From an uncultured Thermoplasmata archaeon (GTDB lineage Archaea > Thermoplasmatota > DTKX01 > GCA-020343715): 64,000 bases of DNA. This document shows, piece after piece, positions 852-51,234 of this stretch (position 1 is the first letter of the stretch; the number at the start of each line of letters is the position of its first letter). The stretch spans positions 9,989 through 73,988 of the forward strand of contig CAYGVT010000066.1 of assembly GCA_964353355.1 (NCBI GenBank). The letters run 5' to 3'. A model generated the notes under the pieces. It was given only the letters and a program-made list of their open reading frames with translations. It had not been told where the DNA came from and searched no databases. Both the position numbers and the translations under genes were made by a program.

Positions 852-2393
852 GTGGGGCCGGAAGGGAGCCCCTTGGATGTCAAGCCAGACGGTGTAGGCC
901 TCACGCTCGAGCAGGTGGCGCAGGTCGCTCGCGAGGGCGCGAGGGTCGTGCTGCCGCAGAAGGCGCGCAAGCGCATGGCGGACAGCCGCCGCGCGCTCGA
1001 GGGGATGCTGCGCAAGGGAGAGACCGTCTACGGGGTGAACACCGGCTTCGGCAGGCTCGCCGACACCAAGATAGACCCGGAGAGGGCCGAGGAGCTCCAG
1101 CGCCGGCTGGTGCTGTCGCACGCCTCTGGACTGGGGGAGCCGCTCGCGGCAGAGGTCGTGCGAGCCGCCATGCTGCTGCGGCTCAACACCTTCGCCAAGG
1201 GGCACTCGGCCGTCCGTGTCGCGCTCGCGGAAACGCTCGTGCGCATGCTCAACGCGCCCGTCACGCCCTACGTCCACTCCATCGGCTCGCTCGGGGCATC
1301 GGGCGACCTGGCGCCGCTCGCCGAGGTCGCGCTCCTGGTCCAAGGCAGGGGCCTCGCCATGACCGACGACGGCCGGGTCGTCGACGGCCGGAAGGCACTT
1401 CACGGTGCGGGCATCGAGCCCCTCAAGCTGGCCTCGCGGGAGGGCCTCGCCCTCATCAATGGCACGCAGGTGATGACGGCCGCGGGCGCCCTCGCGCTCC
1501 TGGACATGGAGCACCTGCTCAAGGCGGAGCTCGTGGCCACCGCGGTCGTCGCGGACGCGCTCGGCGCGCGCCGGTCCGCCTTCGACAGGAGGGTGTTCGA
1601 GGTGAGGCCCTATCCCGGCGCCACGAGGGCCGCGGACGCGCTGCGACGCCTGCTCAAGGGCGGCGACCTCGACAGGGCGCTGCCCAAGAGCGTCCAGGAC
1701 GCATACTCCATACGGTGCGCGCCGCAGATAATCGGCGCCTCGCTCGACGCGGCCGCCTTCGCGCGGCGGCAGCTCGAGATCGAGCTCAACTCCGCGACGG
1801 ACAACCCCCTGCTGTTCCCGGAGGACGGCGAGCACGTCTCGGGAGGCAACTTCCACGGGGAGCCCGTCGCGCAGGCGCTCGACCTGCTCTCCATCGCAAT
1901 CGCGGACATCGGGACGCTGAGCGAGCGGCACACCAATCGCCTCCTGAACCCCAACCTCTCGGGCATGCCGCCGTTCCTCGCGAGCGAGCCCGGCCTGGAC
2001 TCGGGGCTCATGATGGCGCAATACACCGCCGCCGCGCTCGTCGAGGAGCTGCGCGCGCTCGCGCGCCCCGCGACCGTGGACAACGCATCCACGTCCGCCG
2101 ACCAGGAGGACCACGTGAGCCTTGGCATGCACGCCGCGCTCAAGGCCAGGCGGGGTGTGGAGCTGCTGCGCAACGTCGTGGCCATAGAGCTCGTGGCGGG
2201 CGTGCAGGCGCTCGACTTCCGCGCGCCCAAGCGCCCCGCAGAGGGGGTGGCGGAGGTGTACAACCTCGTGCGCCGCATCGTCCCGTTCTACAACGACGAC
2301 CGCCCGCTCAACGACGACCTGATGCGCGTGACGGAGCTGCTGCGCATCGGCGAGGTCGTCCGCGTCGCAGAGGCCCGGGTGGGGCCCCTGTAG
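852..2393 (+). CDS. hutH: histidine ammonia-lyase (aromatic amino acid lyase family, MIO cofactor)
   Basis: 513 aa with a GTG start. Ala-Ser-Gly MIO-forming triad in GSLGASGDLAPLA. Colinear HAL/PAL family similarity along the full length. Confidence 0.88.
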   Translation: MGPEGSPLDVKPDGVGLTLEQVAQVAREGARVVLPQKARKRMADSRRALEGMLRKGETVYGVNTGFGRLADTKIDPERAEELQRRLVLSHASGLGEPLAAEVVRAAMLLRLNTFAKGHSAVRVALAETLVRMLNAPVTPYVHSIGSLGASGDLAPLAEVALLVQGRGLAMTDDGRVVDGRKALHGAGIEPLKLASREGLALINGTQVMTAAGALALLDMEHLLKAELVATAVVADALGARRSAFDRRVFEVRPYPGATRAADALRRLLKGGDLDRALPKSVQDAYSIRCAPQIIGASLDAAAFARRQLEIELNSATDNPLLFPEDGEHVSGGNFHGEPVAQALDLLSIAIADIGTLSERHTNRLLNPNLSGMPPFLASEPGLDSGLMMAQYTAAALVEELRALARPATVDNASTSADQEDHVSLGMHAALKARRGVELLRNVVAIELVAGVQALDFRAPKRPAEGVAEVYNLVRRIVPFYNDDRPLNDDLMRVTELLRIGEVVRVAEARVGPL

Positions 2394-2396: not shown

Positions 2397-3029
2397 GTGG
2401 GGGGCGCAACCGTGAGGGTGCTCTTCCACGCGTGCTGCGGACCGTGCTTCGTCGCGGTCGGGCCCGCCCTCGCTGCCGAGGGCCACGAGGTCGTGGGCTT
2501 CTTCTACAACCCGAACGTGATGCCCTACAAGGAGCACGAGGCGCGCCTCCAGGCGTTCGAGCGCGCATGCGAGGCGGGCCAAGTCGCCGCGGTCGTCGAC
2601 GCCACCTACGAGCCAGAGAGATGGCTGAGGGGCGCGCTCGACGCCGAGCTGCGGTGCGAGTACTGCTACCGCGACCGTCTCTGCCGCGCCGCGAGGCGGG
2701 CAGCGGAGGAGGGCTTCGACGCGTTCACGACCAGCATCCTGGTGTCGCCCTACCAGAAGCACGAGCTCGCGCGCCGGGTCGGCGAGGAGGCCGCGGACCA
2801 GGAGGGCGTGGAGTTCCTCTACCGCGACCTGCGGCCACAGTGGAGGGAATCGCGCAGGCGCACGTTCGAGCTCGGGCTCTACCGCCAGAGATACTGCGGG
2901 TGCGTGTTCTCCGAGCGCGACCGGTACCTCGGTGTTCCCGAGGGGAGGGCCAAGACCGGCCCGACGGGGGCGGCGATGCCGCCCCGGCCAGCAAGGACGG
3001 CTGACGACAGAGGTCCGGGCGGGCCATAA
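2397..3029 (+). CDS. queH: epoxyqueuosine reductase QueH (DUF208)
   Basis: Conserved DUF208/QueH signatures: LFHACCGPC, FYNPNV, RCEYCY..RL, FTTSILVSPYQ, LYRQRYCGCVFS. The GTG start immediately follows the hutH stop. Confidence 0.8.
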   Translation: MGGATVRVLFHACCGPCFVAVGPALAAEGHEVVGFFYNPNVMPYKEHEARLQAFERACEAGQVAAVVDATYEPERWLRGALDAELRCEYCYRDRLCRAARRAAEEGFDAFTTSILVSPYQKHELARRVGEEAADQEGVEFLYRDLRPQWRESRRRTFELGLYRQRYCGCVFSERDRYLGVPEGRAKTGPTGAAMPPRPARTADDRGPGGP

Positions 3030-3040
3030 CGATTAAGTAG

Positions 3041-3634
3041 GTGGGGCACCCACATATCATCGGCGATGCCAATCGCTCATGGAGAGGGCCGGGGTTGGCC
3101 GACGCGGCTGCCGACGTGAAGGTGAGGGACCTCACGCCTGAGAGTAAGAGCGTGAACCTCACCGTGAAGGTTGTCTCCGTCGGCGCCCCGCAGTCGGTGG
3201 CCGCGAGGGACGGTGGCACGCGCACGGTCACCGAGATCGTCGTCGGTGACGAGACCGCCACCGTCGTCATGTCGCTCTGGGACGAGCAGTCCCGCGGCGT
3301 GCAGGCCAGCCAGGTACTGCACGTCGAGAATGGCTACGTCTCCCTCGTCAAGGGCCGCGTCCACCTCAACGTCGGCCGCTACGGTCGCCTCGGCAAGGGC
3401 CAGGGCGACATCACCAACATCAACCGACAGCTCGATGTGTCCGAGGTCGACCACTCCTCGGGTCGCGGGGGCGACCGCGACCTGGGCGGCGCCATCGACC
3501 TAAGGTTCCGGAGAGGCCCCCCCGCGTCCACTGGCTGGGGCACGGACGAGGACGCGCGCGCCCGTGGCATCCGGGTCCGTCGTCGCGGTCGGTCCGACCG
3601 GGAACGCGAGGACCGTCGAGGCCGCTACCGCTGA
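3041..3634 (+). CDS. ssb: single-OB-fold ssDNA-binding protein (crenarchaeal/Sulfolobus-type SSB) with Arg/Gly/Asp-rich C-terminal tail
   Basis: The core VNLTVKVVSV...TRTVTEIVVGDETATVVMSLWDEQS...VLHVENGYVSLVKGRVHLNVGRYGRL aligns with SsoSSB (VNVTVRVLEA...RTISEAIVGDETGRVKLTLWGKHA...). Flexible RGG/RD-rich tail. The start may instead be the in-frame GTG at 3116. Confidence 0.72.
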   Translation: MGHPHIIGDANRSWRGPGLADAAADVKVRDLTPESKSVNLTVKVVSVGAPQSVAARDGGTRTVTEIVVGDETATVVMSLWDEQSRGVQASQVLHVENGYVSLVKGRVHLNVGRYGRLGKGQGDITNINRQLDVSEVDHSSGRGGDRDLGGAIDLRFRRGPPASTGWGTDEDARARGIRVRRRGRSDREREDRRGRYR

Positions 3635-4716
3635 GCGCCCCAGCCGGTCCTGAACTGCTCGAACGTCCCGGCCAGGATGGCCTCCCTCGCCCCCCGCACC
3701 AGGGCGAGGACCAGCGCCACGTTGTGGAACGAGACGAGGTGCATCCACCGGGGGTCGTTGGACCTCCAGAGGTGGTGAACGTAGGCGCGGTCGTACTCCG
3801 CGCACACGTGACAGCCGCACGCTGGGTCCAGGGGTCGTTTGTCGCGGCCCATCGCCCCCCGCGTGATGTCATACCTCCCCGACTCGCACAGCACCGTACC
3901 GTGCCGTCCACCTCGGGTCGGGAACGCGGAATCGAACACATCGACCCCCATGGCGATCGAGTCCAGCAGCTCCCTGGGCGAGCCCACGCCCATGAGGTAC
4001 CTGGGCCGTTCCTCCGGGAGCAGGCCGATGCTCCCCGCGATGGTCCTGTTCATCTCCCCGACGGGCTCACCGATGGAGAGGCCGCCGATGCCGTAACCGT
4101 CGAATGGCATCGCCCCAAGCTCGCGCGTGCTGCGCTCGCGCAGGTCCTCGAGCACACCGCCCTGGGTTATGGCGAACAGGAGCTGCCGCCCGCGGGGATG
4201 CGAATCCAGGCATCTGCGTGCCCACTCGGACGTGCGTCGCGTCGATGCCTCGACCGCGCCGCGCTCGGCGCCGGCGACCGGGCAGTCGTCGAGCACCATC
4301 GCGACGTCGGCCCCGAGCCGGGACTCCACGTCCATGACCCCTTCTGGCGTGAGCGTGTGCGCCTCGCCCGTGACGGGGTGGCGGAACACGAGCCCCTCGT
4401 CCGTCCTCTTGAGCAGGATGCCCTTCTTGATGGTCTGGAACCCGCCCGAGTCCGTGAACAGAGCCCGCCGCCACCGCATGAAGGCGTGCAGCCCCCCCGC
4501 GGCCTCCACGTGCTCGACGCCCGGGCGTACCATTAGCGACCACGAGTTGGCGATGAGCGCGACCGCGCCCGCCTCCTCCAGCTCCCCAGGGGACAGGGTC
4601 CGCACGCTGCCCGTGGTGGCGACGGGCATGAAAAGGGGTGAGGGGACGTCCCCGTGCACGGTGGACAGCGTCCCGGCGCGCGCGCCCCCGTCCCTCCCGG
4701 CGAGCCGGAAGGTCAT
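3625..4716 (-). CDS. tgt: queuine/preQ1 tRNA-guanine transglycosylase, bacterial QueTGT type (no PUA domain)
   Basis: 363 aa. Bacterial-style zinc site CGCHVCAEYDRAYVHHL...HN. Motifs VATTGSV, DSGGFQ, LFAITQGG, GYGIGGLSIGE. The start ATG overlaps the queA stop (ATGA). Confidence 0.85.
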   Translation of the reverse strand: MTFRLAGRDGGARAGTLSTVHGDVPSPLFMPVATTGSVRTLSPGELEEAGAVALIANSWSLMVRPGVEHVEAAGGLHAFMRWRRALFTDSGGFQTIKKGILLKRTDEGLVFRHPVTGEAHTLTPEGVMDVESRLGADVAMVLDDCPVAGAERGAVEASTRRTSEWARRCLDSHPRGRQLLFAITQGGVLEDLRERSTRELGAMPFDGYGIGGLSIGEPVGEMNRTIAGSIGLLPEERPRYLMGVGSPRELLDSIAMGVDVFDSAFPTRGGRHGTVLCESGRYDITRGAMGRDKRPLDPACGCHVCAEYDRAYVHHLWRSNDPRWMHLVSFHNVALVLALVRGAREAILAGTFEQFRTGWGAQR

Positions 4717-5768
4717 CCCACCGACCCCCCCTGGACGAGCATGGCGTCGCCGAGAGAGTGGAAACGGTAGCCCTCGCGCTTCGCCAGCTCGTATGCGGAG
4801 AGGACGCGCTCCCTGCCCGCGTAGGCGGACACGAGCATGATGAGGGTCGACCTCGGGAGGTGGAAGTTGGTGAGCAGTCCCGAGTAGGGGAAGCGGAACC
4901 TGTAGGGCGGGTGGATGAAGAGGTCCGTCCACCCATCGAACGACCTGACGAGGCCGTCCGGGCCCGTCGCGCTCTCGAGCGTGCGCACCGTGGTCGTGCC
5001 GACGGCGATGACCCTGCGGCCCCCGGCGACGGCGCGGTTGAGCGCCTCGGCGGCGTCCGCGCCCACGCTGGCCCGCTCCGCGTCCATGCGGTGGTCCTCC
5101 ACGTGCTCCGCGCGCACGGGCTTGAAGGTGCCCACGCCCACGTGGAGCACGAGCTTGACCATCTCCACGCCGCGCGCGGCCATGTCATCCAGGAGCCCCG
5201 GCGTGAAATGGAGACCCGCCGTCGGCGCGGCGACCGAGCCGTCGACGCGCGCGAAGGTGGTCTGGTAGCGCGCAGGGTCCGTGAGACGCGAGCGGATGTA
5301 AGGCGGGGTGGGCATCTCGCCCCACCGGCGCATGACCGAGATGGCCGTCGCGCCCTCGGGCAGCCGCACGGTGAACCTGCCCTCCCCGAGCGATTCGACG
5401 AGCTCGGCCTCGACCGCGTCCACACCGACCCCGAGCACCAGGCACGCGCCCTCCCGGAGGCCCTTGCCGCCGACCAGGCACTCGGTATAGCCACCCTCCC
5501 CCTCCGTGGCTGCGCCAGTGCCCAGGAACAGCAGCTCGACCTTGCCGCCAGTGGGCTTGCGGCATCGCACCCTCGCGGGAAGGACGCGCGACTCGTTGAG
5601 CACGAGGACGTCGCCCCCCGCCATCAGCCCGGGCAGGTCCTTGATGCGCCGGTGGGCGACGCCGCCGTCCGCCCCGAGCACCAGAAGCCGCGCATGCTCG
5701 CGCGGTTCCACACCCGCCTGGGCGATGAACGATGTAGGGAGGTCATAGTCGTAGTCCGAGAGGGGCAC
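4713..5768 (-). CDS. queA: S-adenosylmethionine:tRNA ribosyltransferase-isomerase
   Basis: 351 aa. N-terminus LSDYDYDLPTSFIAQAGVEPREHARLLVL and GLHFTPGLL, TLHVGVGTF and GTTTVRTLES motifs characteristic of QueA. Forms an overlapping operon with tgt. Confidence 0.85.
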   Translation of the reverse strand: MPLSDYDYDLPTSFIAQAGVEPREHARLLVLGADGGVAHRRIKDLPGLMAGGDVLVLNESRVLPARVRCRKPTGGKVELLFLGTGAATEGEGGYTECLVGGKGLREGACLVLGVGVDAVEAELVESLGEGRFTVRLPEGATAISVMRRWGEMPTPPYIRSRLTDPARYQTTFARVDGSVAAPTAGLHFTPGLLDDMAARGVEMVKLVLHVGVGTFKPVRAEHVEDHRMDAERASVGADAAEALNRAVAGGRRVIAVGTTTVRTLESATGPDGLVRSFDGWTDLFIHPPYRFRFPYSGLLTNFHLPRSTLIMLVSAYAGRERVLSAYELAKREGYRFHSLGDAMLVQGGSVG

Positions 5769-5826
5769 GCTGGCTCACGAGGGCGTTCCTGGTCAAAAGG
5801 ATTGCGGCCCTCGCCCCCCCAAAAGC

Positions 5827-5836
5827 TGATATATGC
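5827..5836 (+). promoter_or_regulatory. TATA-box-like element (tgatatatgc) in the divergent queA / surface-protein intergenic region
   Basis: AT-rich octamer in an otherwise 68% GC sequence. It lies about 30 nt upstream of GTG 5866 and about 55 nt upstream of ATG 5890. Confidence 0.35.
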
Positions 5837-5865
5837 CAGTCCTTCATATTTGGTGCTGAGGGGTT

Positions 5866-8800
5866 GTGGCCCACACGTCGCCGTCTAGGATGCTCGGCCT
5901 CGTCGTCGCCCTCTTCGTGCTGGCCATCACCCTGCTCGCAGCGCTGGCGTTGGCCGAGCGAGAGGTCGTCAACGACGACTTCTCGCTGCCGGACCTCTCC
6001 GGGCCCGACGCCCGGCGGTGGAACGTGTCCACGACCGAGAGCACGGGCGCGGCATCCATCGGGGCAGGGTCGCTGGTGACCACCGTGGAGGGGCTTGGCC
6101 ACGTCACGTGCACGTCTGCAAGGCCCTTCGCGTGCGACAACATCACCCTCACCCTCGAGTGGCAATGGGACTCGGGCGACGGGGAGGCCCTCCGCATCGC
6201 CGTGGAGTCGTTCGTGGACGGGGGGTACCAGGACGCCATCCAGCTGGCCTGCCCCCGCGGGAACTGGCGGCTCCAGTTCCTGTCGCTTGGCAGCTTCCAG
6301 ACATTCTGGATAGGGACGACCATTGCCCGACAGGGTATGCGTTACAACGTGTGCATCTCTCTCACGGGCAACCTCGCCGACGTGACGGTGCGCGAGGGGG
6401 CGACGGGGCCGTTCGTGGCATCCTACATCGACTTCCGGATGGACGGACTGCGGTCCCGCAACCGCATCGCCCTCTCCACCGTCGGCGACACCGCCGGGGA
6501 GACGCTCGTCGCGAGGTGGGACAACGTGGCCGTGGTGGACAGCGCGCTCCCGCCCAACACGGTCCCGCGCTGGCTCTCCGTCGGCCTGCTCGACGCCAGG
6601 GCGAATTTGACCTCCTACCACGACTTCAGCATCGTCATCGACGACGACCAGGAGCCCTGGGAGCTCCTCATCCGTAGCCCCTCGGCCCATGTGGTGTCCA
6701 GCGATGGCACCCTCGTCGGGTTCCTGTTCCCGACCCCGGGCATGCTCGTGACCGTACCGCTGGAGGTCTTCGACGGCATCTCGAGCGCGTGGAACAACGT
6801 GAGCTTCTACGTGGGCTACTTCAACTTCCCGCCGGAGCACGACCTCCCGGCCTCCATCACGGTGCCGGAGGGCGTCCCGACGCGCATCGACCTCGGCGCG
6901 CACATCTGGGACAGGAACGACCCCTCGTCATCGCTGGTCCTCATCCCGAACCTGCCGTTCGTGGAGGTGGACGGGCTCATGCTCATCATCACCGCCCCCG
7001 AGGGGTCCGTCCGTTACGAGCTCAGGCTCCGCATCTCTGACGGGGTGAACGAGGTCGGCGCTATCATCGAGCTTCTGGTGGCCCATTTCGACGCACCGCC
7101 CGAGCTGCTGCCGATCCCGACGTTCTTCGTCGAGGAGGACCGCTGGTCGACGTTCGGATTGATGCCGTACATCAAGGACCCCGACACCCCGGTGGGGCTC
7201 ATCGCGGTGGGGTGCGACTCGCCCAACTGCACCGTCTCGGGCCAGAATCTCGGCTTCCTCTACACGAGAGGTGGCGTGGCAGAGTTCGTGCACTTCTGGG
7301 TGGACGACGGCACGACGACCGTGCATGGGAACCTCACCGTCATCATCGTGGAGGTGAATGACGCCCCTGTCATGGACATGGTGCCCGTCCAGTGCATCAC
7401 GGAGGATGAGCCGGGTCGGGTATCGCTTGACATGTACATCCATGACGAGGAGACCGACCAGGGGAACCTCACCCTGATGTGCGAGCACCCGTCCATTGTC
7501 GAGGTGAGCGGGCTCGAGCTCACCTTCCTCTTCAAGACCCCTGCCGTGAACGAGGTCGTCGCCTTCATCGTCACCGATGGCAACTCCTCCTCCGACAGCT
7601 CGTTCCTCCTCGACGTCATACCCGTCAACGACCCGCCCGTGGTGAGGACCATCGATGGCAAGCCGCCCCCCGTGAACCTCACCACCTACGCGACCAAGAC
7701 CCTCGATGTGGAGGTCGTGTACTTCGACGAGGAGGGGGGGTTTTGCAACCTCATGCTCGAGTCCGACCTCGAGATGGCCTCCTTCCATAGCAGGCTGCTG
7801 CGCATCCAGCCGAGCTACGACGAGGTCGGCGTGCATGCGGTCAACATCGTGGTGAGGGACGAGGACCTCGCCGTCGGGAGTGCGGTCCTGATGGTCACGG
7901 TCCTCGACCCGTCCGAGGTGCCGCTCGAGGTCGAGTTCCTCCTGCCCCACGGGGGGCTGACGCTGACGGAGGGCGATTCGGTGGCCTTCTCGGTCCGCGT
8001 CTCCCACCCGGTCATGGGGTACCTGTCGTTCACCAGCGTCACGTGGGTCTCGGACCTCCAGGGTCCCCTAGGGACCACGGACGGCTCCCATGACATCCTC
8101 ACGTTCTCCACCATGGCCCTGCTGCCCGGCACCCACAACATCAGCGCCGTGGCCAACTCCGGCATGCTGCGCGGCGAGGCGACGGTGAGGGTCACGGTCG
8201 ACGGGCTGCCCGAGGAGCGGCTCGGGGTCCCGGGGTCGATATATGCCATGAGCTTCTGCATCGTCATGGTCGTGGCCGGCATCGCGATGGCGGTCGCTTA
8301 CACCCATTCCAAGCGGGTCACCACGGCGAGGGCTCCGACCCCGGGGACCGCCACTGTGGTGAGCGCCCCCGCATCGCCAAAGCCCCCCCTCAGGCCCGCA
8401 CATGGCCTCGAGACACGGATACAGGTCGTAAGGCCGATGCCCATCCCGGACGAGAAGATGGCGGGCATGCCGCGCATACCATCCAGGACGGCCGACGCCT
8501 GGTCGGCGGGCACCGACACCGAAATGGTGGAGGGCGAGGCGCTCGAGGTGGTGTTCCAGGCCGCGCCAAGCCCGAGGGCGCCCATTGCCCCGGCACCTGC
8601 GGCCACGCCCGGGCCCGCCCCTCCTGCTCCCTCGACCCCTGCACCTGCATCTCCGCCCGCGCGCGCCCTGCCTCCGAGCATACCATCGGGAGCGTCCTCC
8701 AAGGCGGACATGAGGGCCAGCATCGCCGCGCTCAAGGCGGTCATCGAGGCGCTGCCGAACGGCGTGCCTCGCGAGCTCGGCCTCTACGACAGCTACACCA

Positions 8801-8931
8801 TCGCGGAGAGGGTCCTCAAGGGCAAGACCAAGATGGCCCCGGACGGGACGCCGCTCGTGTTCGTGATGGGCGGCTGGTACGTCAACACGCCCGACCGGCC
8901 CGACGCCTTCCTGAGGCCCTGGAAGGAGTGA
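5866..8931 (+). CDS. very large cell-surface protein: signal peptide, sequon-rich ectodomain with cadherin-like (VNDAPV/VNDPPV) repeats, one TM helix, Pro/Ala-rich linker and a folded cytoplasmic C-terminal domain
   Basis: 1021 aa. Signal peptide MLGLVVALFVLAITLLAALALA. More than 10 N-x-S/T sequons. Single TM helix SFCIVMVVAGIAMAVAYT at about aa 780. The true start may be ATG 5890. Confidence 0.7.
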   Translation: MAHTSPSRMLGLVVALFVLAITLLAALALAEREVVNDDFSLPDLSGPDARRWNVSTTESTGAASIGAGSLVTTVEGLGHVTCTSARPFACDNITLTLEWQWDSGDGEALRIAVESFVDGGYQDAIQLACPRGNWRLQFLSLGSFQTFWIGTTIARQGMRYNVCISLTGNLADVTVREGATGPFVASYIDFRMDGLRSRNRIALSTVGDTAGETLVARWDNVAVVDSALPPNTVPRWLSVGLLDARANLTSYHDFSIVIDDDQEPWELLIRSPSAHVVSSDGTLVGFLFPTPGMLVTVPLEVFDGISSAWNNVSFYVGYFNFPPEHDLPASITVPEGVPTRIDLGAHIWDRNDPSSSLVLIPNLPFVEVDGLMLIITAPEGSVRYELRLRISDGVNEVGAIIELLVAHFDAPPELLPIPTFFVEEDRWSTFGLMPYIKDPDTPVGLIAVGCDSPNCTVSGQNLGFLYTRGGVAEFVHFWVDDGTTTVHGNLTVIIVEVNDAPVMDMVPVQCITEDEPGRVSLDMYIHDEETDQGNLTLMCEHPSIVEVSGLELTFLFKTPAVNEVVAFIVTDGNSSSDSSFLLDVIPVNDPPVVRTIDGKPPPVNLTTYATKTLDVEVVYFDEEGGFCNLMLESDLEMASFHSRLLRIQPSYDEVGVHAVNIVVRDEDLAVGSAVLMVTVLDPSEVPLEVEFLLPHGGLTLTEGDSVAFSVRVSHPVMGYLSFTSVTWVSDLQGPLGTTDGSHDILTFSTMALLPGTHNISAVANSGMLRGEATVRVTVDGLPEERLGVPGSIYAMSFCIVMVVAGIAMAVAYTHSKRVTTARAPTPGTATVVSAPASPKPPLRPAHGLETRIQVVRPMPIPDEKMAGMPRIPSRTADAWSAGTDTEMVEGEALEVVFQAAPSPRAPIAPAPAATPGPAPPAPSTPAPASPPARALPPSIPSGASSKADMRASIAALKAVIEALPNGVPRELGLYDSYTIAERVLKGKTKMAPDGTPLVFVMGGWYVNTPDRPDAFLRPWKE

Positions 8932-16440: not shown

Positions 16441-17517
16441 ATGGGCAAGGGGGGCAGGTCGATGGACGTAGGTTTCCTGAGCTACGGCATCTGGGTCCCG
16501 CGCCACCGCATCTCGACCGAGGAGATCGCCCGCGTCTGGGGCAAGGACGGTAAGGCGATGGCCGCCGGGCTCGGCGTGAGCAGCAAGTCCGTGCCCGCGG
16601 TCGACGAGGACGTCATCACGATGTCCGTGGAGGCCGCGGAGATGGCCATGAGGCGGTCAGGCATCGGGCCCAAGGACGTGGGCGCCGTCTACGTGGGCTC
16701 CGAGTCGCACCCCTACGCCGTGAAGCCCACGGCCACGGTCGTGGCCGAGGCCATCGGCTCGACACCTGACCTGACGGCGGCCGACTACGAGTTCGCGTGC
16801 AAGGCGGGGACGGCGGCCTTCCAGACGTGCATGGGCCTGGTCAGGTCCGAGATGGTCAAGGCGGGCATGGCCATCGGCGCGGACACCTCCCAGGGCGCGC
16901 CGGGGGACGCGCTGGAGTACTCCGCGTCAGCGGGCGCGGCCGCCTACCTCATCGGCTCCGGCGAGGGCGTCATCGCGCGCATCGACCACACGCTGAGCTA
17001 CACCACAGACACGCCCGACTTCTGGCGTCGCGAGGGCCAGATGTACCCGTCGCACGGGGGCCGGTTCACGGGCGTGCCCGCGTACTTCAAGCACGTGGTC
17101 ACGTGCGGGAAGAACATGCTCGCGCGCGCCGGCACGACCGCCAAGGACTACGACCACGTCGTGCTGCACCAGCCCAACGGCAAGTTCCCCGTGCGGGCGG
17201 CCAAGATGCTGGGGTTCCCGCCCGAGAAGGTGGAGCGGGGGCTGCTCACACCGCGCATCGGCAACACCTACAGCGCGGCCGTGCCGCTGGGGCTCGCGAA
17301 CATCCTCGACGCCGCGCGGCCGGGCGAGCGCATCCTCGTGGTGTCCTACGGCTCGGGCGCCGGCTCGGACGCGTTCGACATCACGGTCACGGACGCGATG
17401 GCGCGCTACCAGCGCAACGCGGACGACCTCGTGGAGACGCGCATAGCCTACCACAAGTTCATCGACTACGCGACCTACGCCAAGTTCCGCGGCAAGATAC
17501 AGATGGGGAGGGGATGA
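16441..17517 (+). CDS. hydroxymethylglutaryl-CoA synthase (archaeal type)
   Basis: 358 aa. Catalytic Cys in EFACKAGTAA; GSESHPYAVKP, HQPNGKF and NTYSAAVPLGL motifs of archaeal HMGCS. The true start may be MDVGFLSYG at 16462. Confidence 0.9.
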   Translation: MGKGGRSMDVGFLSYGIWVPRHRISTEEIARVWGKDGKAMAAGLGVSSKSVPAVDEDVITMSVEAAEMAMRRSGIGPKDVGAVYVGSESHPYAVKPTATVVAEAIGSTPDLTAADYEFACKAGTAAFQTCMGLVRSEMVKAGMAIGADTSQGAPGDALEYSASAGAAAYLIGSGEGVIARIDHTLSYTTDTPDFWRREGQMYPSHGGRFTGVPAYFKHVVTCGKNMLARAGTTAKDYDHVVLHQPNGKFPVRAAKMLGFPPEKVERGLLTPRIGNTYSAAVPLGLANILDAARPGERILVVSYGSGAGSDAFDITVTDAMARYQRNADDLVETRIAYHKFIDYATYAKFRGKIQMGRG

Positions 17518-17518
17518 C

Positions 17519-18688
17519 GTGCGCGAGGTCGCCATCGTCGGGGCGGGCGTGACGCAGTTCGGGGAGCTGTGGGAGCGCTCGCTGCGCGACATAGGGCTCG
17601 AGAGCGGCATGCTCGCGCTCATGGACGCGGGCCTCGAGACCGAGGACGTCGAGGCCCTCTACCTCGGCAACATGTCCGCGGGCAGGTTCATCCAGCAGGA
17701 GCACATCGGCGCGCTCATCGCGGACCACTCGGGCCTCGCGGACCGAGGCGTGCCCGCCACGCGCGTCGAGGCGGGCGGGGCCTCGGGGGGCCTGGCGCTG
17801 CATCAGGCCTACCTCGCCGTCGCGTCCGGCCTCCACGACGTGGTCATGGTGGGCGGCGCGGAGAAGATGACCGACGTGTCCGACCAGGACGCCGAGGAGA
17901 CCACCGGCTTCGCGGCCGACCAGGAGTGGGAGGTGTTCTTCGGGGCGACCCTCGCGTCGCTCTACGCGCTGGTCGCGCGCCGCCACATGCACCTCCACGG
18001 CACGACGAGCGAGCAGCTGGCGGCCGTGGCGGTCAAGAACCACGCGCACGGGGCGGCCAACCCCAAGGCCCAGTTCCAGTCGCGCATCACCATCGAGGAC
18101 GTGCTTCGCGCGAGTCGCGTGGCCGAGCCCCTTGGCGTCTACGACTGCGCGCCCCTGACGGACGGTGGCGCGGCCGTGGTGCTAACCACGCCCGACCGCG
18201 CCCGCGAGCTCGGGAGGCCTTCAATCGTCATCCGCGGCTCCGCCCAGGCGTCCGACACGCTCGCCCTCCACGACCGGTGGTCGCTCACGGAGCAGCGCGC
18301 GACGCGCATCGCGGCCGAGCGCGCGCTCAAGCAGGCGGGCATGTCGCTCTCGGACGTGGACGTGGCCGAGCTCAACGACGCGTTCACCATCGCCGAGGTC
18401 GTCGCGCTCGAGGAGATCGGGTTCGCCAAGCGCGGTGAGGGGGGCCGGTGCGCGCCCGAGGGCCGCACCGCGCTCGGCGGCGAGCTGCCCGTGAACACGT
18501 CGGGCGGGCTCAAGGCCCGCGGCAACCCCTGGGGCGCGACCGGCATCGCGCAGGTGGTGGAGCTCTTCGACCAGCTGGTGGGCCGCGCCAGGGGCAGGCA
18601 GGTCGACGGCGCGCGCGTGGGATTGGCCCACAACGTGGGGGGGACAGGCGCGACCGTCGTCGTGCACGTGCTGGAGGCGGTCCGATGA
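17519..18688 (+). CDS. acetyl-CoA C-acetyltransferase (archaeal thiolase) partnered with HMGCS/DUF35
   Basis: 389 aa with a GTG start. Thiolase motifs VAIVGAGVTQFG, YDCAPLTDGGAAVVL, NTSGGLKARGNPWGATGIAQ, GLAHNVGGTG. Confidence 0.9.
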   Translation: MREVAIVGAGVTQFGELWERSLRDIGLESGMLALMDAGLETEDVEALYLGNMSAGRFIQQEHIGALIADHSGLADRGVPATRVEAGGASGGLALHQAYLAVASGLHDVVMVGGAEKMTDVSDQDAEETTGFAADQEWEVFFGATLASLYALVARRHMHLHGTTSEQLAAVAVKNHAHGAANPKAQFQSRITIEDVLRASRVAEPLGVYDCAPLTDGGAAVVLTTPDRARELGRPSIVIRGSAQASDTLALHDRWSLTEQRATRIAAERALKQAGMSLSDVDVAELNDAFTIAEVVALEEIGFAKRGEGGRCAPEGRTALGGELPVNTSGGLKARGNPWGATGIAQVVELFDQLVGRARGRQVDGARVGLAHNVGGTGATVVVHVLEAVR

Positions 18689-19131
18689 CCGGCGTGAGGT
18701 TCTGGCGCGAGTTCGCCTCGCGCTACCGCATGCTCGCGACGAGGTGCCCGCTGTGCGGGCTGGTCTACTTCCCCCCGCGGGACGTGTGCCGCAAGTGCCG
18801 GCGCGCCTCCGTCGGGAGGATGGAGCGCGTGCCCATGCCCCGCATCGGCAAGGTGATGACCTGCACCGTCGTGCACCAGGGGCAGAAGGGCTTCGAGGAC
18901 CAGGTGCCCTACGTCCTTGCCATCGTGGAGTTCGAGGGCGGCGTCACCGTGATGGGGCAGGTCGTGGACTGCGACACGTGCGACGTGGGCATCGGCATGG
19001 AGGTCAAGCCCGTGTTCCGCCGCATCCGCGAGGAGGGCGAGGCCGGGGTCATCCACTACGGCTACAAGTTCGCGCCGACCTGCTACCCCGTCTGCGCCGT
19101 CGACGAGGAAGTTACCGAGCGGAAGGACTGA
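18685..19131 (+). CDS. DUF35 OB-fold/zinc-ribbon scaffold protein of the archaeal thiolase-HMGCS complex
   Basis: CPLCGLVYFPPRDVCRKC zinc ribbon followed by an OB fold. Overlaps the thiolase stop (ATGA). Confidence 0.85.
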   Translation: MTGVRFWREFASRYRMLATRCPLCGLVYFPPRDVCRKCRRASVGRMERVPMPRIGKVMTCTVVHQGQKGFEDQVPYVLAIVEFEGGVTVMGQVVDCDTCDVGIGMEVKPVFRRIREEGEAGVIHYGYKFAPTCYPVCAVDEEVTERKD

Positions 19132-25627: not shown

Positions 25628-25720
25628 GGTGGCGTGCGGGCGTGCGCCACATTCGCTGAACCCCCCGTAAGCAATATCTCCCCCCTTCGCCATAGGGGGC
25701 ATTCCCCGCGGGAGAGGGAC

Positions 25721-27889
25721 ATGGCAGAGGAGTACTCCGAGGAGAGCCTGAAGGAGCTGTGGAGCTCCTTCTTCAAGGAGCACGGCTACGTGCCGCCGCT
25801 GCTCGACATCGCGGCGCGCTACCCCGAGGTCCGCTCGCTCGAGGTCACCTACCCCGACATCTCGCGGTTCAACATCGCGCTCGCGGACCACCTCCTCGAG
25901 CAGCCGCTTGCCGCGCTCGCGGCGGCCGAGAAGGCCTCGCAGCAGCTGATGCCCCCCACCGCGCGGGCGCCCGTGCACATCCGCGTGTCGCAGCTGCCCA
26001 AGGACCCCGAGTACGGCCGCATCGGCATCCGCGACCTGCGCAGCAAGCACCTCGGCCGCCTCATCGCCGTCGAGGGGCTGGTGCGCAAGTCCACCGAGGT
26101 GCGGCCGAGGCTGAAGCTCGCGGTGTACCAGTGCCTGCGGTGCGGGGCCATCCACCACCTCGAGCAGGACTCGCTCGTGCTCAAGGAGCCGCTCGAGTGC
26201 TTCAAGGAGGGCGGCGGCTGCGGCCGGGCGGCCACGTCGACCAAGTTCAGGCTCATCACCAACTACGCGTCCCTCCCGGACCCGTTCGCGACCGCCTACC
26301 AGGGCAAGGCGCTGGACTTCTCCGAGTTCGTCGACACCCAGAAGATCGAGATACAGGAGAGCCCCGAGGGCCTCCGGGGCGGTGACCAGCCCCAGCGGCT
26401 CGTCGCCTACACCCAAGACGACCTCGCCGGCATCCTCTCGCCGGGGGACCGCATCGTCATCAACGGCGTGCTCCGCGAGACCCCCAAGGGCCAGGGCGCG
26501 CAGAAGTCGACGCTGTTCGACATCTTCATGGACGTGGTGTCCATCGAGAAGGAGAAGCGCGACTTCGAGTCCATCGTCATAACCGAGGAGGACGAGCTGC
26601 GCATCAAGGAGACCTCGCACGACGTCGCGCTCATGGACAAGTTCACGACCTCCATCGCCCCCACCATCTACGGCCTGGAGCGCGAGAAGGAGGCGCTGTC
26701 GCTGCAGCTCTTCGGCGGGGTCGCCAAGGTCCTGCCCGACGGCACGCGCATCCGAGGCGACATCCACATAATGCTCGTGGGCGACCCGGGCACGGCCAAG
26801 TCCCAGCTGCTGCGGTACATGACGGCCCTCGCGCCAAGGGCCATCTACACGTCCGGCAAGGCCACGACGGCGGCTGGACTCACCGCGGCCGCGGTGCGCG
26901 ACGAGTTCGGCGAGGGCCGCTGGACGCTCGAGGCGGGCGCGCTCGTGCTCGCGGACAAGGGCCTGTGCGCCATCGACGAGCTCGACAAGATGAACGAGCA
27001 GGACCGCGGCGCGATGCACGAGGCGATGGAGCAGCAGAGCATCTCCGTCGCCAAGGCGGGCATCACGGCCACGCTCCAGTCCCGGTGCGCCATCCTGGGC
27101 GCGGCCAACCCCAAGCTGGGGCGGTTCCACGAGCACGCGCTCATGGTCGAGCAGATAGACCTGCCGCCCGCCCTGTTCTCCAGGTTCGACATCATCTTCT
27201 CCCTCATCGACAAGCCGGACTCGGCCTGGGACGCCAGGCTCGCCGACCACATCCTCAAGGTCCACCGCGTCGGGGAGATAAGCCGCCTCAAGGAGCACCT
27301 GGACGGCCTCCCCCTGCCCGAGGGCATGGAGGAGGAGTCGACGGACGCCGTCATGCCCGCCTTCGAGCCCGAGTTCGTGCGCAAGTACGTGGCCTACGCC
27401 AAGAACAACGTCTTCCCCGTGCTCACGCGGGAGGCGACGGCGGCCATCCGCGAGTACTACATCCGCATCCGCAAGCAGGGCGAGGGCGAGGAGGCCTCTG
27501 TGCCCCTCACCGCGAGGCAGCTCGAGGCGTTCGTCCGTCTCGCGGAGGCCGCGGCCAGGGCGCGGCTCTCCGAGACGGTCGAGCGCGAGGACGCCGATCG
27601 CGGGATCCGCATCGTCGACTACTGGCTCAAGAAGATAATGGGCGGCGAGAAGTTCGACATCGATGTCATCGCCACCGGCATCAGCCACTCCCAGCGCGAG
27701 CGCATGCGCATCCTGCTGGACATCATCGAGAAGCTCACCAAGGGCGGCCGCGGCGCGCTCGAGGACGACGTGCTCGCGGACGCTGAGGGCTTCAACATCG
27801 ACCGCACGCAGGCCAAGGACGTCCTCAAGCGCCTGGTCTCGGACGGCCGCGTCTACCAGCCCACGGTGGGCACCTACAGGATGGTCTGA
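25721..27889 (+). CDS. mcm: MCM replicative helicase (archaeal, full domain set)
   Basis: 722 aa. N-terminal domain with C4 zinc finger (CLRCG...C..GGGC). Walker A GDPGTAKSQ, Walker B CAIDELDKM, sensor/arginine finger SRFDIIF, C-terminal winged helix. Confidence 0.95.
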   Translation: MAEEYSEESLKELWSSFFKEHGYVPPLLDIAARYPEVRSLEVTYPDISRFNIALADHLLEQPLAALAAAEKASQQLMPPTARAPVHIRVSQLPKDPEYGRIGIRDLRSKHLGRLIAVEGLVRKSTEVRPRLKLAVYQCLRCGAIHHLEQDSLVLKEPLECFKEGGGCGRAATSTKFRLITNYASLPDPFATAYQGKALDFSEFVDTQKIEIQESPEGLRGGDQPQRLVAYTQDDLAGILSPGDRIVINGVLRETPKGQGAQKSTLFDIFMDVVSIEKEKRDFESIVITEEDELRIKETSHDVALMDKFTTSIAPTIYGLEREKEALSLQLFGGVAKVLPDGTRIRGDIHIMLVGDPGTAKSQLLRYMTALAPRAIYTSGKATTAAGLTAAAVRDEFGEGRWTLEAGALVLADKGLCAIDELDKMNEQDRGAMHEAMEQQSISVAKAGITATLQSRCAILGAANPKLGRFHEHALMVEQIDLPPALFSRFDIIFSLIDKPDSAWDARLADHILKVHRVGEISRLKEHLDGLPLPEGMEEESTDAVMPAFEPEFVRKYVAYAKNNVFPVLTREATAAIREYYIRIRKQGEGEEASVPLTARQLEAFVRLAEAAARARLSETVEREDADRGIRIVDYWLKKIMGGEKFDIDVIATGISHSQRERMRILLDIIEKLTKGGRGALEDDVLADAEGFNIDRTQAKDVLKRLVSDGRVYQPTVGTYRMV

Positions 27890-29256: not shown

Positions 29257-29344
29257 CCCCCCCGCCCCCCCCGTGCCACGGGTGGTCCAGCATGCTACGT
29301 GGATGCCCCCAGGGACTTTTACCAGGCGACCCGCACGAAGGCGT

Positions 29345-29358
29345 CGGTTTTATATAGT
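29345..29358 (+). promoter_or_regulatory. strong TATA box (ggttttatatagta) with purine-rich BRE-like upstream sequence
   Basis: TTTATATA consensus about 75 nt upstream of ATG 29431. An AAAGGAAG SD-like element lies 8 nt before the ATG. Confidence 0.45.
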
Positions 29359-29430
29359 AGAACCTTGTTGCCTATCCGAAGGGCCTTCCCAAGAGGGTTG
29401 GACCTTCTAAGAACCTAAAGGAAGTATAGC

Positions 29431-29616
29431 ATGCAGCAAGAGCGTGGATACGACAGGAGGGGAGGCCGGGACTTCGACCGCCCGCCCCGTGAGCAGCACA
29501 AGATAACCTGCGCGGATTGTGGCAAGGAAGACACGGTCCCGTTCAAGCCTGACGGCAACAGGCCAGTCTACTGCCGCGAGTGCTTCTCCAAGCACCGCCC
29601 CCCAAGGCGGTTCTAG
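29431..29616 (+). CDS. small treble-clef zinc-ribbon (zf-trcl-like) protein with RGG/RD-rich N-terminus
   Basis: ITCADCGKEDTVPFKPDGNRPVYCRECFSKHR has the CxxC-x17-CxxC spacing. 61 aa. Confidence 0.6.
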   Translation: MQQERGYDRRGGRDFDRPPREQHKITCADCGKEDTVPFKPDGNRPVYCRECFSKHRPPRRF

Positions 29617-29758
29617 ACCTACGAACGCAATGGGGGCGGCGAACCGCTGCCCCCGACGACCGCGGTCGGTGCGTCAAGCACCTCCGCGGCCGATCCATTT
29701 TTTTCCCTTTACCAGCCAGCCATGGCCATGCCCTGCGGCGTGGCCGCCGGCTCCCCCG

Positions 29759-31336: not shown

Positions 31337-32451
31337 GTTCCACCCTCCTCGAAGTCCAGCATCCTGAGCCTCAGCTCCGGCGCATGCCCCTCGTGGGGCA
31401 GGAGCGCCAGGTCCATGTGCGTACCGCATCCCTCGACCGCGACGTAGGGGTCGCGCTCGAGCGCGAGCTGCAGCCGCGCGCCCAGGTCGCGCCTCCGCTC
31501 CTCGCGCCCCCGCGTGGCACCGGCCATCCGCTCGCGCTCCCGCAGCAGGCGGTCGGCGCCGTAGAGGTACTCGTAGAGGTTCCTCTCGAACTGCCTGCGC
31601 ATGCGCGCGAGCACCTCGTCGTCGTCGCGCATGACGACCCACTCGAGCCCCTCGATGTCGGCGAAGAAGAGCGTCCCGTCGGGCGCGAGCACCGAATCTT
31701 TGTCCAGCCACACGTCCGCGTAGTCGAGCGCGGCCACGCCGCGGCCCTCGACCTCCTCGACCGTCCGCGGTACGAGGGTGAGCGCGGCCATGCCGGACCT
31801 GAGGTAGCAATCGATGAACGCGTCGAGCCCCTGCTCGTCCTCCACCCCGAAGGCCGAGAGGACGGGGCGCGTCCGCCTCCCGAGCGTGGACTCGGACTGG
31901 TAGAACAGGCGCACGTCCGAGGGCAGCAGCCGGACCTCCTGGTAGTAGGGCTCGCCGCCGTCGAGGCGGCGGTACCACCACTGCGCCATCGCGCGCTCCA
32001 TCAGCCACTGCGGCAGGGGCGTCGCCCGTGCCATCGGGCAGATGTGGAGGCCGCGGATGCCCTCCTGTCCCGTGAGGGCGGTCAAGGCCGCGTCCTCCTC
32101 GCAGACGCTGCGCCCCATCGCGCCCCACGGGCTCTCGCCGAACCAGGACTCGGAGGTGAACAGGGCCCCCCTGGCGGCGGGGGGCGCTCCCAGCCCGGCC
32201 GGGTCGTCATCGTACATGGGGGCGCGGGCCCCCACGCCCTTGACGCTCACCAGCCACCGCCTGCCCCACAGCTCGACCTGGGCATCCTCCAGGATCGTCG
32301 CGCGGTTGCCCTCGGGGATGGCGCGGACCGCCCTGGTCCCGGTGGTGGGGGCCACGCCCTCGGGGAGCAGGACCGCGCCCTCGAGGGACGTGCGCACGCG
32401 TTCCATGTTGCGGGGGACGATGGGCTCGCCGTCCGTGGGGACGACCAGCAT
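31333..32451 (-). CDS. hypothetical cytoplasmic protein
   Basis: ORF with high GC3 and operonic overlap with the neighbours. An alternative GTG start at 32505 overlaps the GNAT stop (GTGA). Confidence 0.5.
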   Translation of the reverse strand: MLVVPTDGEPIVPRNMERVRTSLEGAVLLPEGVAPTTGTRAVRAIPEGNRATILEDAQVELWGRRWLVSVKGVGARAPMYDDDPAGLGAPPAARGALFTSESWFGESPWGAMGRSVCEEDAALTALTGQEGIRGLHICPMARATPLPQWLMERAMAQWWYRRLDGGEPYYQEVRLLPSDVRLFYQSESTLGRRTRPVLSAFGVEDEQGLDAFIDCYLRSGMAALTLVPRTVEEVEGRGVAALDYADVWLDKDSVLAPDGTLFFADIEGLEWVVMRDDDEVLARMRRQFERNLYEYLYGADRLLRERERMAGATRGREERRRDLGARLQLALERDPYVAVEGCGTHMDLALLPHEGHAPELRLRMLDFEEGGT

Positions 32452-32501
32452 TCGCTCGCGCTCGCGCCCGAGCGCGACGGGGCCCGTCGGGAACGTCGCG
32501 C

Positions 32502-36267: not shown

Positions 36268-36309
36268 AGGCGACAGGTATTTGAACGCCCCATGTCCGTG
36301 CCACTCCGG

Positions 36310-51233: not shown

Positions 51234-51234
51234 C

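Follow-up and report, generated by a model that had tools for sequence, protein, structure and literature searches.

Why should an archaeal genome encode bacterial-type enzymes for the queuosine (Q) modification of tRNA? An earlier note on the 64-kb stretch of DNA analysed here (the window) had placed queH, tgt and queA in an otherwise archaeal gene context and, on the premise that archaea use archaeosine, had proposed the lateral acquisition of a complete route of Q insertion, epoxidation and reduction. The premise is the textbook view, in which archaea use archaeosine and not queuosine (PMC7694415), but, as far as genomes are concerned, it does not hold strictly any more, because a Q cluster has been published for other archaea. 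In the text of Castelle et al. (2021, Front Microbiol; PMC8204110), co-localized QueA, QueH and Tgt are described from DPANN and Methanosarcinales and interpreted as a bacterial pathway that these archaea possess; 34 archaeal genomes have the pathway in complete and/or partial form. The window contains the same three genes, of bacterial type and co-localized with archaeal informational genes (SSB and MCM) as in those clusters, in a lineage of high GC content that is affiliated with Thermoplasmatota and that neither the text nor the figure legend of that paper names. With such clusters on record for other archaea since 2021, the window appears to add a new host lineage to a known oddity, the archaeal queA/tgt/queH cluster.

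Locus organization and conservation

The three genes lie within 3.4 kb (Table 1), at the positions given in the earlier note, and pass curated thresholds in family profile searches. Independent gene calls begin queH at GTG 2412, giving a protein of 205 residues, and this is probably the true start. The tgt open reading frame spans 3625–4932 on the minus strand, the actual start being the ATG at 4716. This start overlaps the queA stop in an ATGA tetranucleotide, read directly in the sequence, which bears out the proposed queA–tgt operon; the two genes would be co-transcribed and translationally coupled. The intergenic region beside queA contains AT-rich patches (aaatat at ∼5851–5846 and catatat at ∼5835–5829) in a genome of 70% GC and is presumed to be the promoter region of queA–tgt. 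As the earlier note had it, queH lies across a junction from tgt: it is encoded on the strand opposite queA–tgt, with hutH 3 nt before it and the SSB gene after it. The SSB gene converges on tgt and shares 10 bp with the 3′ end of that gene. It is outside the queuosine pathway and marks both the archaeal host and a lineage-specific synteny.

Table 1. Features of the locus and archaeal marker genes, in window coordinates.
Feature	Position	Strand	Description
queH	2397–3029	+	Cobalamin-independent epoxyqueuosine reductase (DUF208); PF02677, E = 9.6e-53
SSB gene	3041–3634	+	Archaeal single-OB SSB, between queH and tgt; PF21473, E = 6.7e-12
tgt	3625–4716	-	Bacterial-type tRNA guanosine(34) transglycosylase with a single TGT domain (363 aa)
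queA	4713–5768	-	351 aa; NF001140 and TIGR00113
Intergenic region	5769–5865	.	Between queA and a divergent 1021-aa surface-protein gene
HMG-CoA synthase, thiolase, DUF35	16441–19131		Archaeal context
MCM	25634–27889		Archaeal context
AcnX	36292–38005		Archaeal context

The convergent arrangement of queA–tgt with SSB–queH is kept in relatives at 65–71% Tgt identity. SSB lies between tgt and queH in loci L084–L087, L090, L092 and L093, and hutH comes after queH in L084, L085, L086 and L090 but is absent there in L087. In contrast to the window, with SSB between tgt and queH and hutH abutting queH, a Methanoperedens locus (L005) and a Thermoplasmata locus (L024) have queH directly after tgt. The position of queA directly upstream of tgt is common to most of the archaeal and bacterial loci examined. 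The genes are intact and under purifying selection across the relatives, with dN/dS values of 0.16 for tgt, 0.28 for queA and 0.19–0.22 for queH (against 85–87% identical relatives), similar to those of the comparison genes hutH (0.15) and ssb (0.22–0.25).

Identity of Tgt, QueA and QueH

Tgt was compared with the curated family models, where TGT, arcTGT and ArcS were the only NCBIfam models returned. It scored 386.1 bits against TIGR00430 (Q_tRNA_tgt; curated equivalog cutoff 306.75), and its sole Pfam domain is PF01702. Among solved structures, the T. maritima TGT (PDB code 2ASH) gave 314 bits with a sequence identity of 42%. Residues D262 and D89 align to D280 and D102 of Z. mobilis TGT, are also aligned in T. 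maritima TGT and are invariant in 25 relatives; we take the two Z. mobilis residues (FD..PTR and TDSGGFQ motifs) to be the catalytic nucleophile and the acid/base, respectively. A preQ1 pocket was recognized by Asp156, Cys158 and Val233 (Z. mobilis numbering), as against the eukaryotic Val/Gly. The corresponding motifs here are LDDC (D143 and C145) and GGLSIGE (I215), the latter identical to that of T. maritima TGT and carrying a conservative Val-to-Ile change relative to Val233 of Z. mobilis. The zinc site C300-x-C302-x-x-C305...H331 is complete and invariant in the alignment, and the motif YDRAYVHHL is present, so that the short bacterial type with CxCxxC..H and YxRAYxHHL signatures described in the earlier note is upheld by TIGR00430 and the residue alignment.

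The enzyme normally expected in archaea is arcTGT (TgtA), which targets G15 and inserts preQ0. It resembles the present Tgt in belonging to the TIM-barrel TGT superfamily, in its zinc site and in acting with a 7-deazaguanine base, but carries C-terminal C2/C3(PUA) domains that Tgt lacks, as the earlier note had observed. An assignment as arcTGT was rejected: the score against the arcTGT model TIGR00432 (116.8 bits) falls below its cutoff of 350, the C2/C3(PUA) domains are missing, and the P. horikoshii arcTGT (PDB code 1IQ8) gives 74 bits against 314 for T. maritima TGT. A grouping with arcTGT, which the earlier note would have counted against its proposal, was thus not found. The eukaryotic QTRT1/QTRT2 enzymes share the catalytic fold and the G34 target, and QTRT1 itself scores 260 bits. 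QTRT1 has Val and Gly at the positions of Cys145 and Ile215; the pocket of Tgt is instead of the bacterial type, and no QTRT2-like partner is seen here. QueA and QueH accompany Tgt in this locus, whereas eukaryotes lack both because they salvage queuine.

QueA scored 371.9 bits against NF001140 (cutoff 324) and 320.7 bits against TIGR00113 (cutoff 267.45), and its residues 3–345 align end to end with residues 4–344 of T. thermophilus QueA (PDB code 1WDI; 306 bits). QueH had no NCBIfam match; it scored 179.3 bits against PF02677 (gathering threshold 23.5) over profile positions 1–174 of 175, and 88 bits against T. maritima QueH (PDB codes 9DCO and 7LC5). All six cysteines of the T. maritima CC, CxxC and CGC motifs have aligned counterparts (C13/C14, C87/C90 and C167/C169), which presumably serve as ligands to an Fe–S cluster and an adjacent iron, as in the 7LC5 structure. 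All catalytic, zinc-binding and Fe–S residues that can be aligned to solved structures are therefore present in the three proteins.

In architecture and length, the proteins match the bacterial Tgt–QueA–QueH set (2ASH, Z. mobilis TGT, 1WDI and 7LC5/9DCO), as they do in the catalytic Asp residues, the Cys/Ile(Val) preQ1 pocket, the zinc site, the QueH cysteines and the queA–tgt order. They differ in having an archaeal host and sequence identities of only 38–46% to the bacterial proteins. The yajC–secDF and ruvAB neighbours typical of Bacillota and E. coli operons were found neither in the window nor in the annotated neighbourhoods of the archaeal relatives.

An archaeal host

The archaeal context claimed for the cluster (MCM, a Sulfolobus-type SSB and mevalonate-pathway genes) is supported by profile and structure matches. 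The best solved matches of the SSB are the Sulfolobus SSB structures 1O7I (E = 1.4e-15) and 2MNA (E ∼ 1e-15), MCM lies ∼20 kb from the cluster, and DUF424 and DUF5611 are further archaeal markers in the window. Named relatives of the MCM, at 53–57% identity, come from Thermoplasmata, Methanomassiliicoccales and Thermoplasmatota. These sequences point to an uncultured archaeon of high GC content (70%) with an affiliation to Thermoplasmatota, a placement taken from the names of MCM and Tgt relatives at 53–65% identity.

A chimeric or mis-binned contig, in which a piece of bacterial sequence had been fused to archaeal DNA, would offer a trivial explanation, and the cluster does lie near the left end of the window, more than 10 kb from the strongest archaeal markers, the HMG-CoA synthase (16.4 kb) and MCM (25.6 kb) genes. 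However, the Sulfolobus-type SSB gene is located between tgt and queH, and the local order is reproduced by independent assemblies from at least five samples. Logan assemblies of ERR4334727 repeat the order TauE–hutH–queH–SSB–tgt–queA–surface protein, and those of ERR3804373 and ERR4334726 yield matching pieces that are shorter. Relatives of 89% identity, found in two further samples, show this order too, and the region from TauE to a CN-hydrolase gene is covered by a Logan contig of 25.5 kb. Relatives with the same neighbourhood reside on contigs of 117–263 kb. An MCM 76% identical to that of the window is recorded on a contig of 263,371 bp, which is also the length of the contig that carries the Tgt of 65% identity. 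The tetranucleotide profile is homogeneous, positions 2397–5768 correlating with the whole window at r = 0.984 (94th percentile of same-size segments), so that the compositional check suggested in the earlier note was passed. No bacterial ribosomal or replication genes occur on the window. A chimeric contig is effectively refuted, its remaining probability being negligible.

Origin of the cluster

In a neighbour-joining tree, 29 archaeal Tgt sequences were split from 33 bacterial ones with 99–100% bootstrap support, the bacterial sample (Bacillota, Chloroflexota, Thermotoga and Zymomonas) covering four phyla and the trees being distance-based and unrooted. The Tgt of the window falls in this archaea-only group with those of Methanoperedens, Hydrothermarchaeota, Thermoplasmatota and DPANN (Woesearchaeota and Pacearchaeota), within which the branching is poorly supported and does not obviously track archaeal phylogeny. 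The archaeal QueA group received 59% bootstrap support. QueH formed no archaeal clade, and the QueH clade of the window grouped weakly (48%) with Desulfobacterota.

A recent bacterial transfer specific to the organism of the window might be suspected from the bacterial operon order of queA–tgt, from the weak QueH grouping with Desulfobacterota and from Tgt identities that are only slightly lower to bacterial (42–46%) than to non-lineage archaeal sequences (47–51%). It is nonetheless very improbable: the composition is host-like (the tetranucleotide correlation given above, and a GC3 of 0.90–0.92 as in neighbouring genes), the cluster and its flanks are kept in relatives down to 65% Tgt identity, and all 29 archaeal Tgt sequences stand apart from the sampled bacteria. 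On these sequence comparisons, queA–tgt appears to be an old shared archaeal trait and not a recent private transfer.

The clean bipartition of Tgt, and its occurrence across several phylum-level groups (Methanoperedens, Hydrothermarchaeota, Thermoplasmatota, Woesearchaeota and Pacearchaeota), would also suit an ancestral archaeal queA–tgt that was present before bacteria and archaea diverged, or in an early member of the archaea, and was later lost from many lineages. We give this origin a minimal probability, given the patchy archaeal distribution indicated by the text of PMC8204110, the poorly supported inner branching that does not obviously follow archaeal phylogeny, an unrooted tree with a narrow bacterial sample and the non-monophyly of archaeal QueH. 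The archaeal queA–tgt group most probably derives from an old operon transfer from a bacterium to an archaeon, and QueH may have been recruited separately. Since the trees are unrooted, the direction from bacteria to archaea is drawn from the distribution. The lateral acquisition proposed in the earlier note is thus retained as an old event in that direction, while host-like composition, synteny and the archaeal grouping speak against a recent, private one.

Proposed pathway and preQ1 supply

We consider it likely that tgt, queA and queH are functional resident genes, inherited vertically within the lineage after an old transfer, that encode the three tRNA-level steps of queuosine formation. 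In the scheme, for which we infer the enzymatic activities, the tRNA targets and the preQ1 source as well as the direction of transfer, Tgt would replace G34 by free preQ1 in tRNAs with GUN anticodons (Asp, Asn, His and Tyr). Asp262 would carry the covalent intermediate and Asp89 would serve as acid/base; the Cys145/Ile215 pocket of the enzyme would suit preQ1 and not queuine. Tgt would contain zinc, and its bacterial homologues are homodimers. In the next step QueA would form epoxyqueuosine (oQ), drawing on S-adenosylmethionine for the epoxycyclopentanediol ring, and QueH, an Fe–S enzyme with no need for cobalamin, would reduce the epoxide to queuosine. The preQ1 might come from the archaeal preQ0 pathway and a QueF, or from salvage.

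Of the complete route envisaged in the earlier note, the three tRNA-level steps are accounted for, but a preQ1 source was not found within the window. The search that the earlier note recommended for queCDEF, a transporter and arcTGT was run on the 64-kb window and 10 kb around the relatives' clusters, and it returned no QueF, QueC/D/E, FolE, arcTGT, YhhQ/QPTR or QueT. No preQ1 riboswitch was detected in the window, and no Asp, Asn, His or Tyr (GUN-anticodon) tRNA genes were present in the window or the other loci examined.

The enzymes might accordingly be active and yet leave no Q34 on cellular tRNA, whether they insert preQ0 or another 7-deazaguanine, modify another position, act on DNA in a DpdA-like manner or stop at preQ1 or oQ. 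Such outcomes would fit the failure to see a preQ1 source in the window or near the relatives' clusters. They would also fit general knowledge of these pathways: preQ0 is made by archaea on the way to archaeosine, and TGTs from bacteria accept it, although less efficiently. In addition, no paper on the chemical detection of queuosine in an archaeon was found in the literature. Taken jointly, we regard these variants as unlikely, as Tgt scores above the G34 equivalog cutoff, with no NCBIfam models beyond TGT, arcTGT and ArcS, and its base pocket has the residues of bacterial enzymes specific for preQ1. Moreover, the co-retention of QueA and QueH under purifying selection is hard to explain unless the three-step route runs; we know of no substrate of QueA and QueH other than preQ1-tRNA and oQ-tRNA.

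Implications

A broader proposal, put forward tentatively and at somewhat less than even confidence, is that queA–tgt is an old archaeal trait kept by selection and does not reflect scattered, sporadic transfers. Lineages such as the Thermoplasmatota clade would then carry Q34 in their Asp, Asn, His and Tyr tRNAs, fed by a preQ0 pool shared with archaeosine at position 15, and QueH would have entered different archaeal lineages by independent recruitment. If Q34 is indeed made in these archaea from the preQ0 pool of archaeosine, it would be the first case of Q in an archaeon, and a single cell would operate a dual 7-deazaguanine system, with queuosine at position 34 and archaeosine at position 15 of its tRNAs.

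Gene organization

The window holds about 40 genes (ORF selection guided by GC3) in sequence of uniformly high GC content (0.66-0.75 in 2-kb steps). The queH, tgt and queA genes of queuosine (Q) modification, described in the earlier note, were all recovered at positions 2397-5768. The family match of the longest tgt ORF begins only at residue 75; read from the ATG at 4716, tgt encodes 363 aa and its product is identical to a database protein of the same length. Direct reading shows that this ATG and the queA stop codon TGA overlap within gggATGAcc; an ATGA stop/start overlap of this kind is the usual sign of co-transcription and translational coupling. The gene between queH and tgt encodes a single-OB protein (SSB), the best solved matches of which are the Sulfolobus SSB structures 1O7I and 2MNA (E ~1e-15); at their 3' ends this gene and tgt share 10 bp.

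Features of the window (dN/dS by the Nei-Gojobori method, window versus 89% identical relatives)
Feature	Position	Strand	dN/dS	Remarks
hutH, histidine ammonia-lyase	852-2393		0.15	above family cutoff; 3 nt upstream of queH
queH	2397-3029	+	0.19-0.22	PF02677, E = 9.6e-53, full profile covered
ssb	3041-3634	+	0.22-0.25	179-197 aa
tgt (longest ORF)	3625-4932	-	0.16	
queA	4713-5768	-	0.28	351 aa
gene divergent from queA	5866-8931	+		1021 aa; no Pfam match
HMG-CoA synthase/thiolase/DUF35 trio	16441-19131			Pfam; archaeal marker
MCM	25634-27889	+		Pfam; archaeal marker
stretch of ~3.2 kb	29257-32501			no convincing annotated gene
small treble-clef zinc-finger gene	29431-29616			
789-aa ORF	29759-32128	-		no Pfam match; other long ORFs compete with it
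AcnX large and small subunits	36292-38005			Pfam; archaeal marker
GcvH	40432-41058	-		
HdrA-like gene run	41705-52776	+		1301-, 1125- and 595-aa proteins
MvhD/FlpD with winged-helix HTH	45607-46371			fusion
GcvH	53564-53965	-		
SHMT-GcvT ORF	54032-57637	-		1201 aa; PF00464 with PF01571 + PF08669

Family assignment and conserved residues

Tgt scores 386 bits on TIGR00430, the NCBIfam equivalog model for the G34 enzyme (cutoff 306.75), against 117 bits on the archaeosine-enzyme model TIGR00432, far under the cutoff of 350, which bears out the earlier assignment as a bacterial-type Tgt rather than the archaeosine enzyme arcTGT. Comparison with individual enzymes gave 314 bits for Thermotoga maritima TGT (2ASH), 298 bits for the Zymomonas mobilis enzyme, 260 bits for mammalian QTRT1 and 74 bits for Pyrococcus horikoshii arcTGT (1IQ8). 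Alignment to solved structures places D89 in the TDSGGFQ motif, D143 and C145 in LDDC, D262 in FDSAFPTR and the zinc site at C300-x-C302-x-x-C305...H331, with YDRAYVHHL in between. The GGLSIGE segment is the same as in T. maritima, with I215 replacing V233 of Z. mobilis, and the motif and zinc-site positions are invariant or almost so in 25 relatives. We take the Cys/Val(Ile) pair, by analogy with Z. mobilis TGT, to mark a preQ1 pocket and not the queuine pocket of eukaryotes.

QueA exceeds the cutoffs of both NCBIfam QueA equivalog models and aligns end to end with Thermus thermophilus QueA (306 bits), while QueH retains all six cysteines aligned with T. maritima QueH (C13/C14, C87/C90 and C167/C169). 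A role in DpdA-like DNA modification was considered and rejected on account of the score on the G34 equivalog, the return of only TGT, arcTGT and ArcS models from NCBIfam, and the retention of QueA and QueH together with Tgt.

Archaeal host and contig integrity

The archaeal context proposed for these genes is borne out by MCM, the Sulfolobus-type SSB and the HMG-CoA synthase/thiolase/DUF35 trio, together with AcnX, DUF424, DUF5611 and HdrA-like proteins with MvhD; Pfam annotation revealed no bacterial replication or translation genes in the window. Placement of the host rests on the names under which relatives of MCM and Tgt are recorded: those named for MCM, at 53-57% identity, are MAGs of Thermoplasmata, Methanomassiliicoccales and Thermoplasmatota, and a Tgt with 65% identity belongs to a cluster in which one member bears the name Thermoplasmata archaeon. 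At 751 aa, the longest MCM ORF exceeds most of its close homologues, which are 722-723 aa long with 96% coverage of it; the true start probably lies about 29 codons downstream.

A chimeric contig could also bring bacterial-type genes into archaeal surroundings. The exact Tgt is, however, present in Logan assemblies from the three runs ERR4334727, ERR3804373 and ERR4334726; the longest contig (25.5 kb, from ERR4334727) has the order TauE-hutH-queH-SSB-tgt-queA-surface protein-HGD-D-BcrAD...CN-hydrolase, as in the window, and ends ~1.2 kb past hutH, and two shorter contigs match parts of it. Versions with 89% identity and the same gene order come from two further samples. The tetranucleotide profile of 2397-5768 correlates with that of the whole window at r = 0.984, above 94% of segments of the same size. 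Together these results exclude chimerism for practical purposes and uphold the view of the contig as that of a single organism.

Conservation within the lineage

In relatives with 65-71% Tgt identity (JGI 3300033154/5, GCA_012974705.1, GCA_975959785.1 and ENA ERZ27271168), queA-tgt><SSB-queH is conserved in order, as is much of its surroundings, and identity declines in step for QueA, Tgt, SSB and QueH. The dN/dS values indicate that the Q genes, like the genes next to them, are kept by selection. Synteny in relatives, native composition and purifying selection mark the cluster as clearly resident.

SSB lies between tgt and queH, with an overlap of about 10 bp at the 3' end of tgt, in all members of the lineage down to 65% Tgt identity (L084-L087, L090, L092 and L093); it is absent from this position in the Methanoperedens locus L005 and in another Thermoplasmata locus, L024, where queH directly follows tgt. 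Of the five loci with 65-71% Tgt identity, four have hutH after queH, and L087 lacks it; the adjacency of hutH and queH is kept in L084, L085, L086, L090 and L092, and some relatives have two tandem aromatic-lyase genes at that position. We know of no functional link between hutH and queuosine, so this adjacency is probably mere inherited synteny. A functional link of either SSB or hutH to the Q genes was rejected since HGD-D, BcrAD and the surface protein are conserved too; for SSB, other archaeal lineages lack the gene at that position.

The 1021-aa protein divergent from queA, probably a secreted or surface protein, is encoded by the stretch whose tetranucleotide usage departs most from that of the remaining window (r ~0.90) and whose GC content is lower (0.66); relatives have a gene of ~960-1018 aa in its place.

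Other genes in the window

One ORF fuses serine hydroxymethyltransferase to the glycine-cleavage T protein, an architecture that to our knowledge is not standard; two GcvH genes lie near it, one with an N-terminal extension of ~80 aa. The genes of the three very large HdrA-like flavo-iron-sulfur proteins are accompanied by one for an FrhB-like Fe-S protein and two for MvhD/FlpD, one of which carries a fused winged-helix HTH; the run points to an electron-bifurcating module in a non-methanogen setting.

Phylogeny and origin

Named Tgt matches among the best 120 listed are all archaeal (Methanoperedens, Hydrothermarchaeales and 'Methanobacteriota'). Among the matches listed from species-representative genomes, archaeal Tgt sequences come from Methanoperedens, Hydrothermarchaeota, Thermoplasmatota, Woesearchaeota and Pacearchaeota (39-51% identity) and bacterial ones from Bacillota and Chloroflexota (41-46%). 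In bootstrapped, unrooted neighbour-joining trees based on Kimura protein distances, all 29 archaeal Tgt sequences stand apart from 33 bacterial sequences of four phyla with 99-100% bootstrap, and the archaeal QueA sequences cluster together weakly (59%). For Tgt and QueA alike, the trees suggest a separate archaeal group. Most loci, archaeal as well as bacterial, have queA immediately 5' of tgt, which makes joint movement of the two as an operon probable.

In the QueH tree the clade of the window is tight (100%) and other archaeal QueH sequences are scattered among bacterial ones with low support, which may reflect separate recruitment of the reductase or too weak a signal. The clade of the window falls weakly with Desulfobacterota in the tree of homologues P0261-P0380 with L005, L016 and L021. 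Methanoperedens/Methanosarcinales QueH fall with Bacillota-like sequences and that of the unclassified archaeal MAG L016 with Thermotoga/Dehalococcoidales.

The patchy archaeal distribution points to transfer from bacteria to archaea, a direction that the unrooted trees leave to this argument. The lateral acquisition put forward in the earlier note is supported in so far as the genes are of bacterial type in an archaeon, but not as a private event: judged from Tgt and the cluster, found also in relatives and other archaea, the event is old and shared.

Proposed route and target tRNAs

Family membership and residue conservation point to a route in which Tgt would exchange G34 of GUN-anticodon tRNAs for preQ1, QueA would convert preQ1 to epoxyqueuosine with SAM and QueH would reduce epoxyqueuosine to queuosine. 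What had been called a complete insertion, epoxidation and reduction route is represented in the window by the genes of the three tRNA-level steps only. Neither the window nor the 10 kb around the clusters of relatives contains queC/D/E/F, folE, arcTGT, a known precursor transporter or a preQ1 riboswitch (in an Rfam gathering scan of the window a tRNA was the sole match), and a database look-up of the M50 peptidase ORF for sequence beyond the window returned no record. Synthesis of preQ0 for archaeosine is general among archaea (PMC7694415), so that, as a conjecture, preQ1 supply would need no more than one QueF or one salvage transporter encoded elsewhere in the genome. No GUN-anticodon tRNA occurs in the window, which has only tRNA-Pro(CGG), or in the archaeal loci, which have only Pro, Arg, Val and Gly tRNAs. 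Of all codons in the genes of the window, 11.9% specify Asp, Asn, His or Tyr, and 85-95% of these end in C.

Biological implications

A 2020 review of modified nucleosides restricts Archaea, within this family, to preQ0 and archaeosine and assigns Q to Bacteria and Eukarya (PMC7694415), in keeping with the textbook view of archaeosine as the counterpart of Q in archaea. Castelle et al. (2021; PMC8204110) described co-localized QueA, QueH-like and Tgt proteins in archaea, the figured examples being DPANN and Methanosarcinales, and proteins of Methanoperedens, Hydrothermarchaeales and Thermoplasmata MAGs are already annotated publicly as 'tRNA guanosine(34) transglycosylase Tgt'. A full-text literature search, thin on subscription journals, found no archaeon in which Q had been detected chemically and no further reports of archaeal Q genes. 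The window differs from the figured clusters in its Thermoplasmatota-affiliated lineage and in the SSB inserted in the cluster, although the 34 genomes of that study may include Thermoplasmatota. It opens no new kind of system; relative to those figured examples, it adds a Thermoplasmatota-affiliated lineage to the published archaeal exceptions (PMC8204110). Its sequences suit heterologous complementation tests. The resident cluster and the archaeal Tgt/QueA group strengthen the case for real use of Q34 in some archaea, and such organisms may truly carry Q34 alongside archaeosine.
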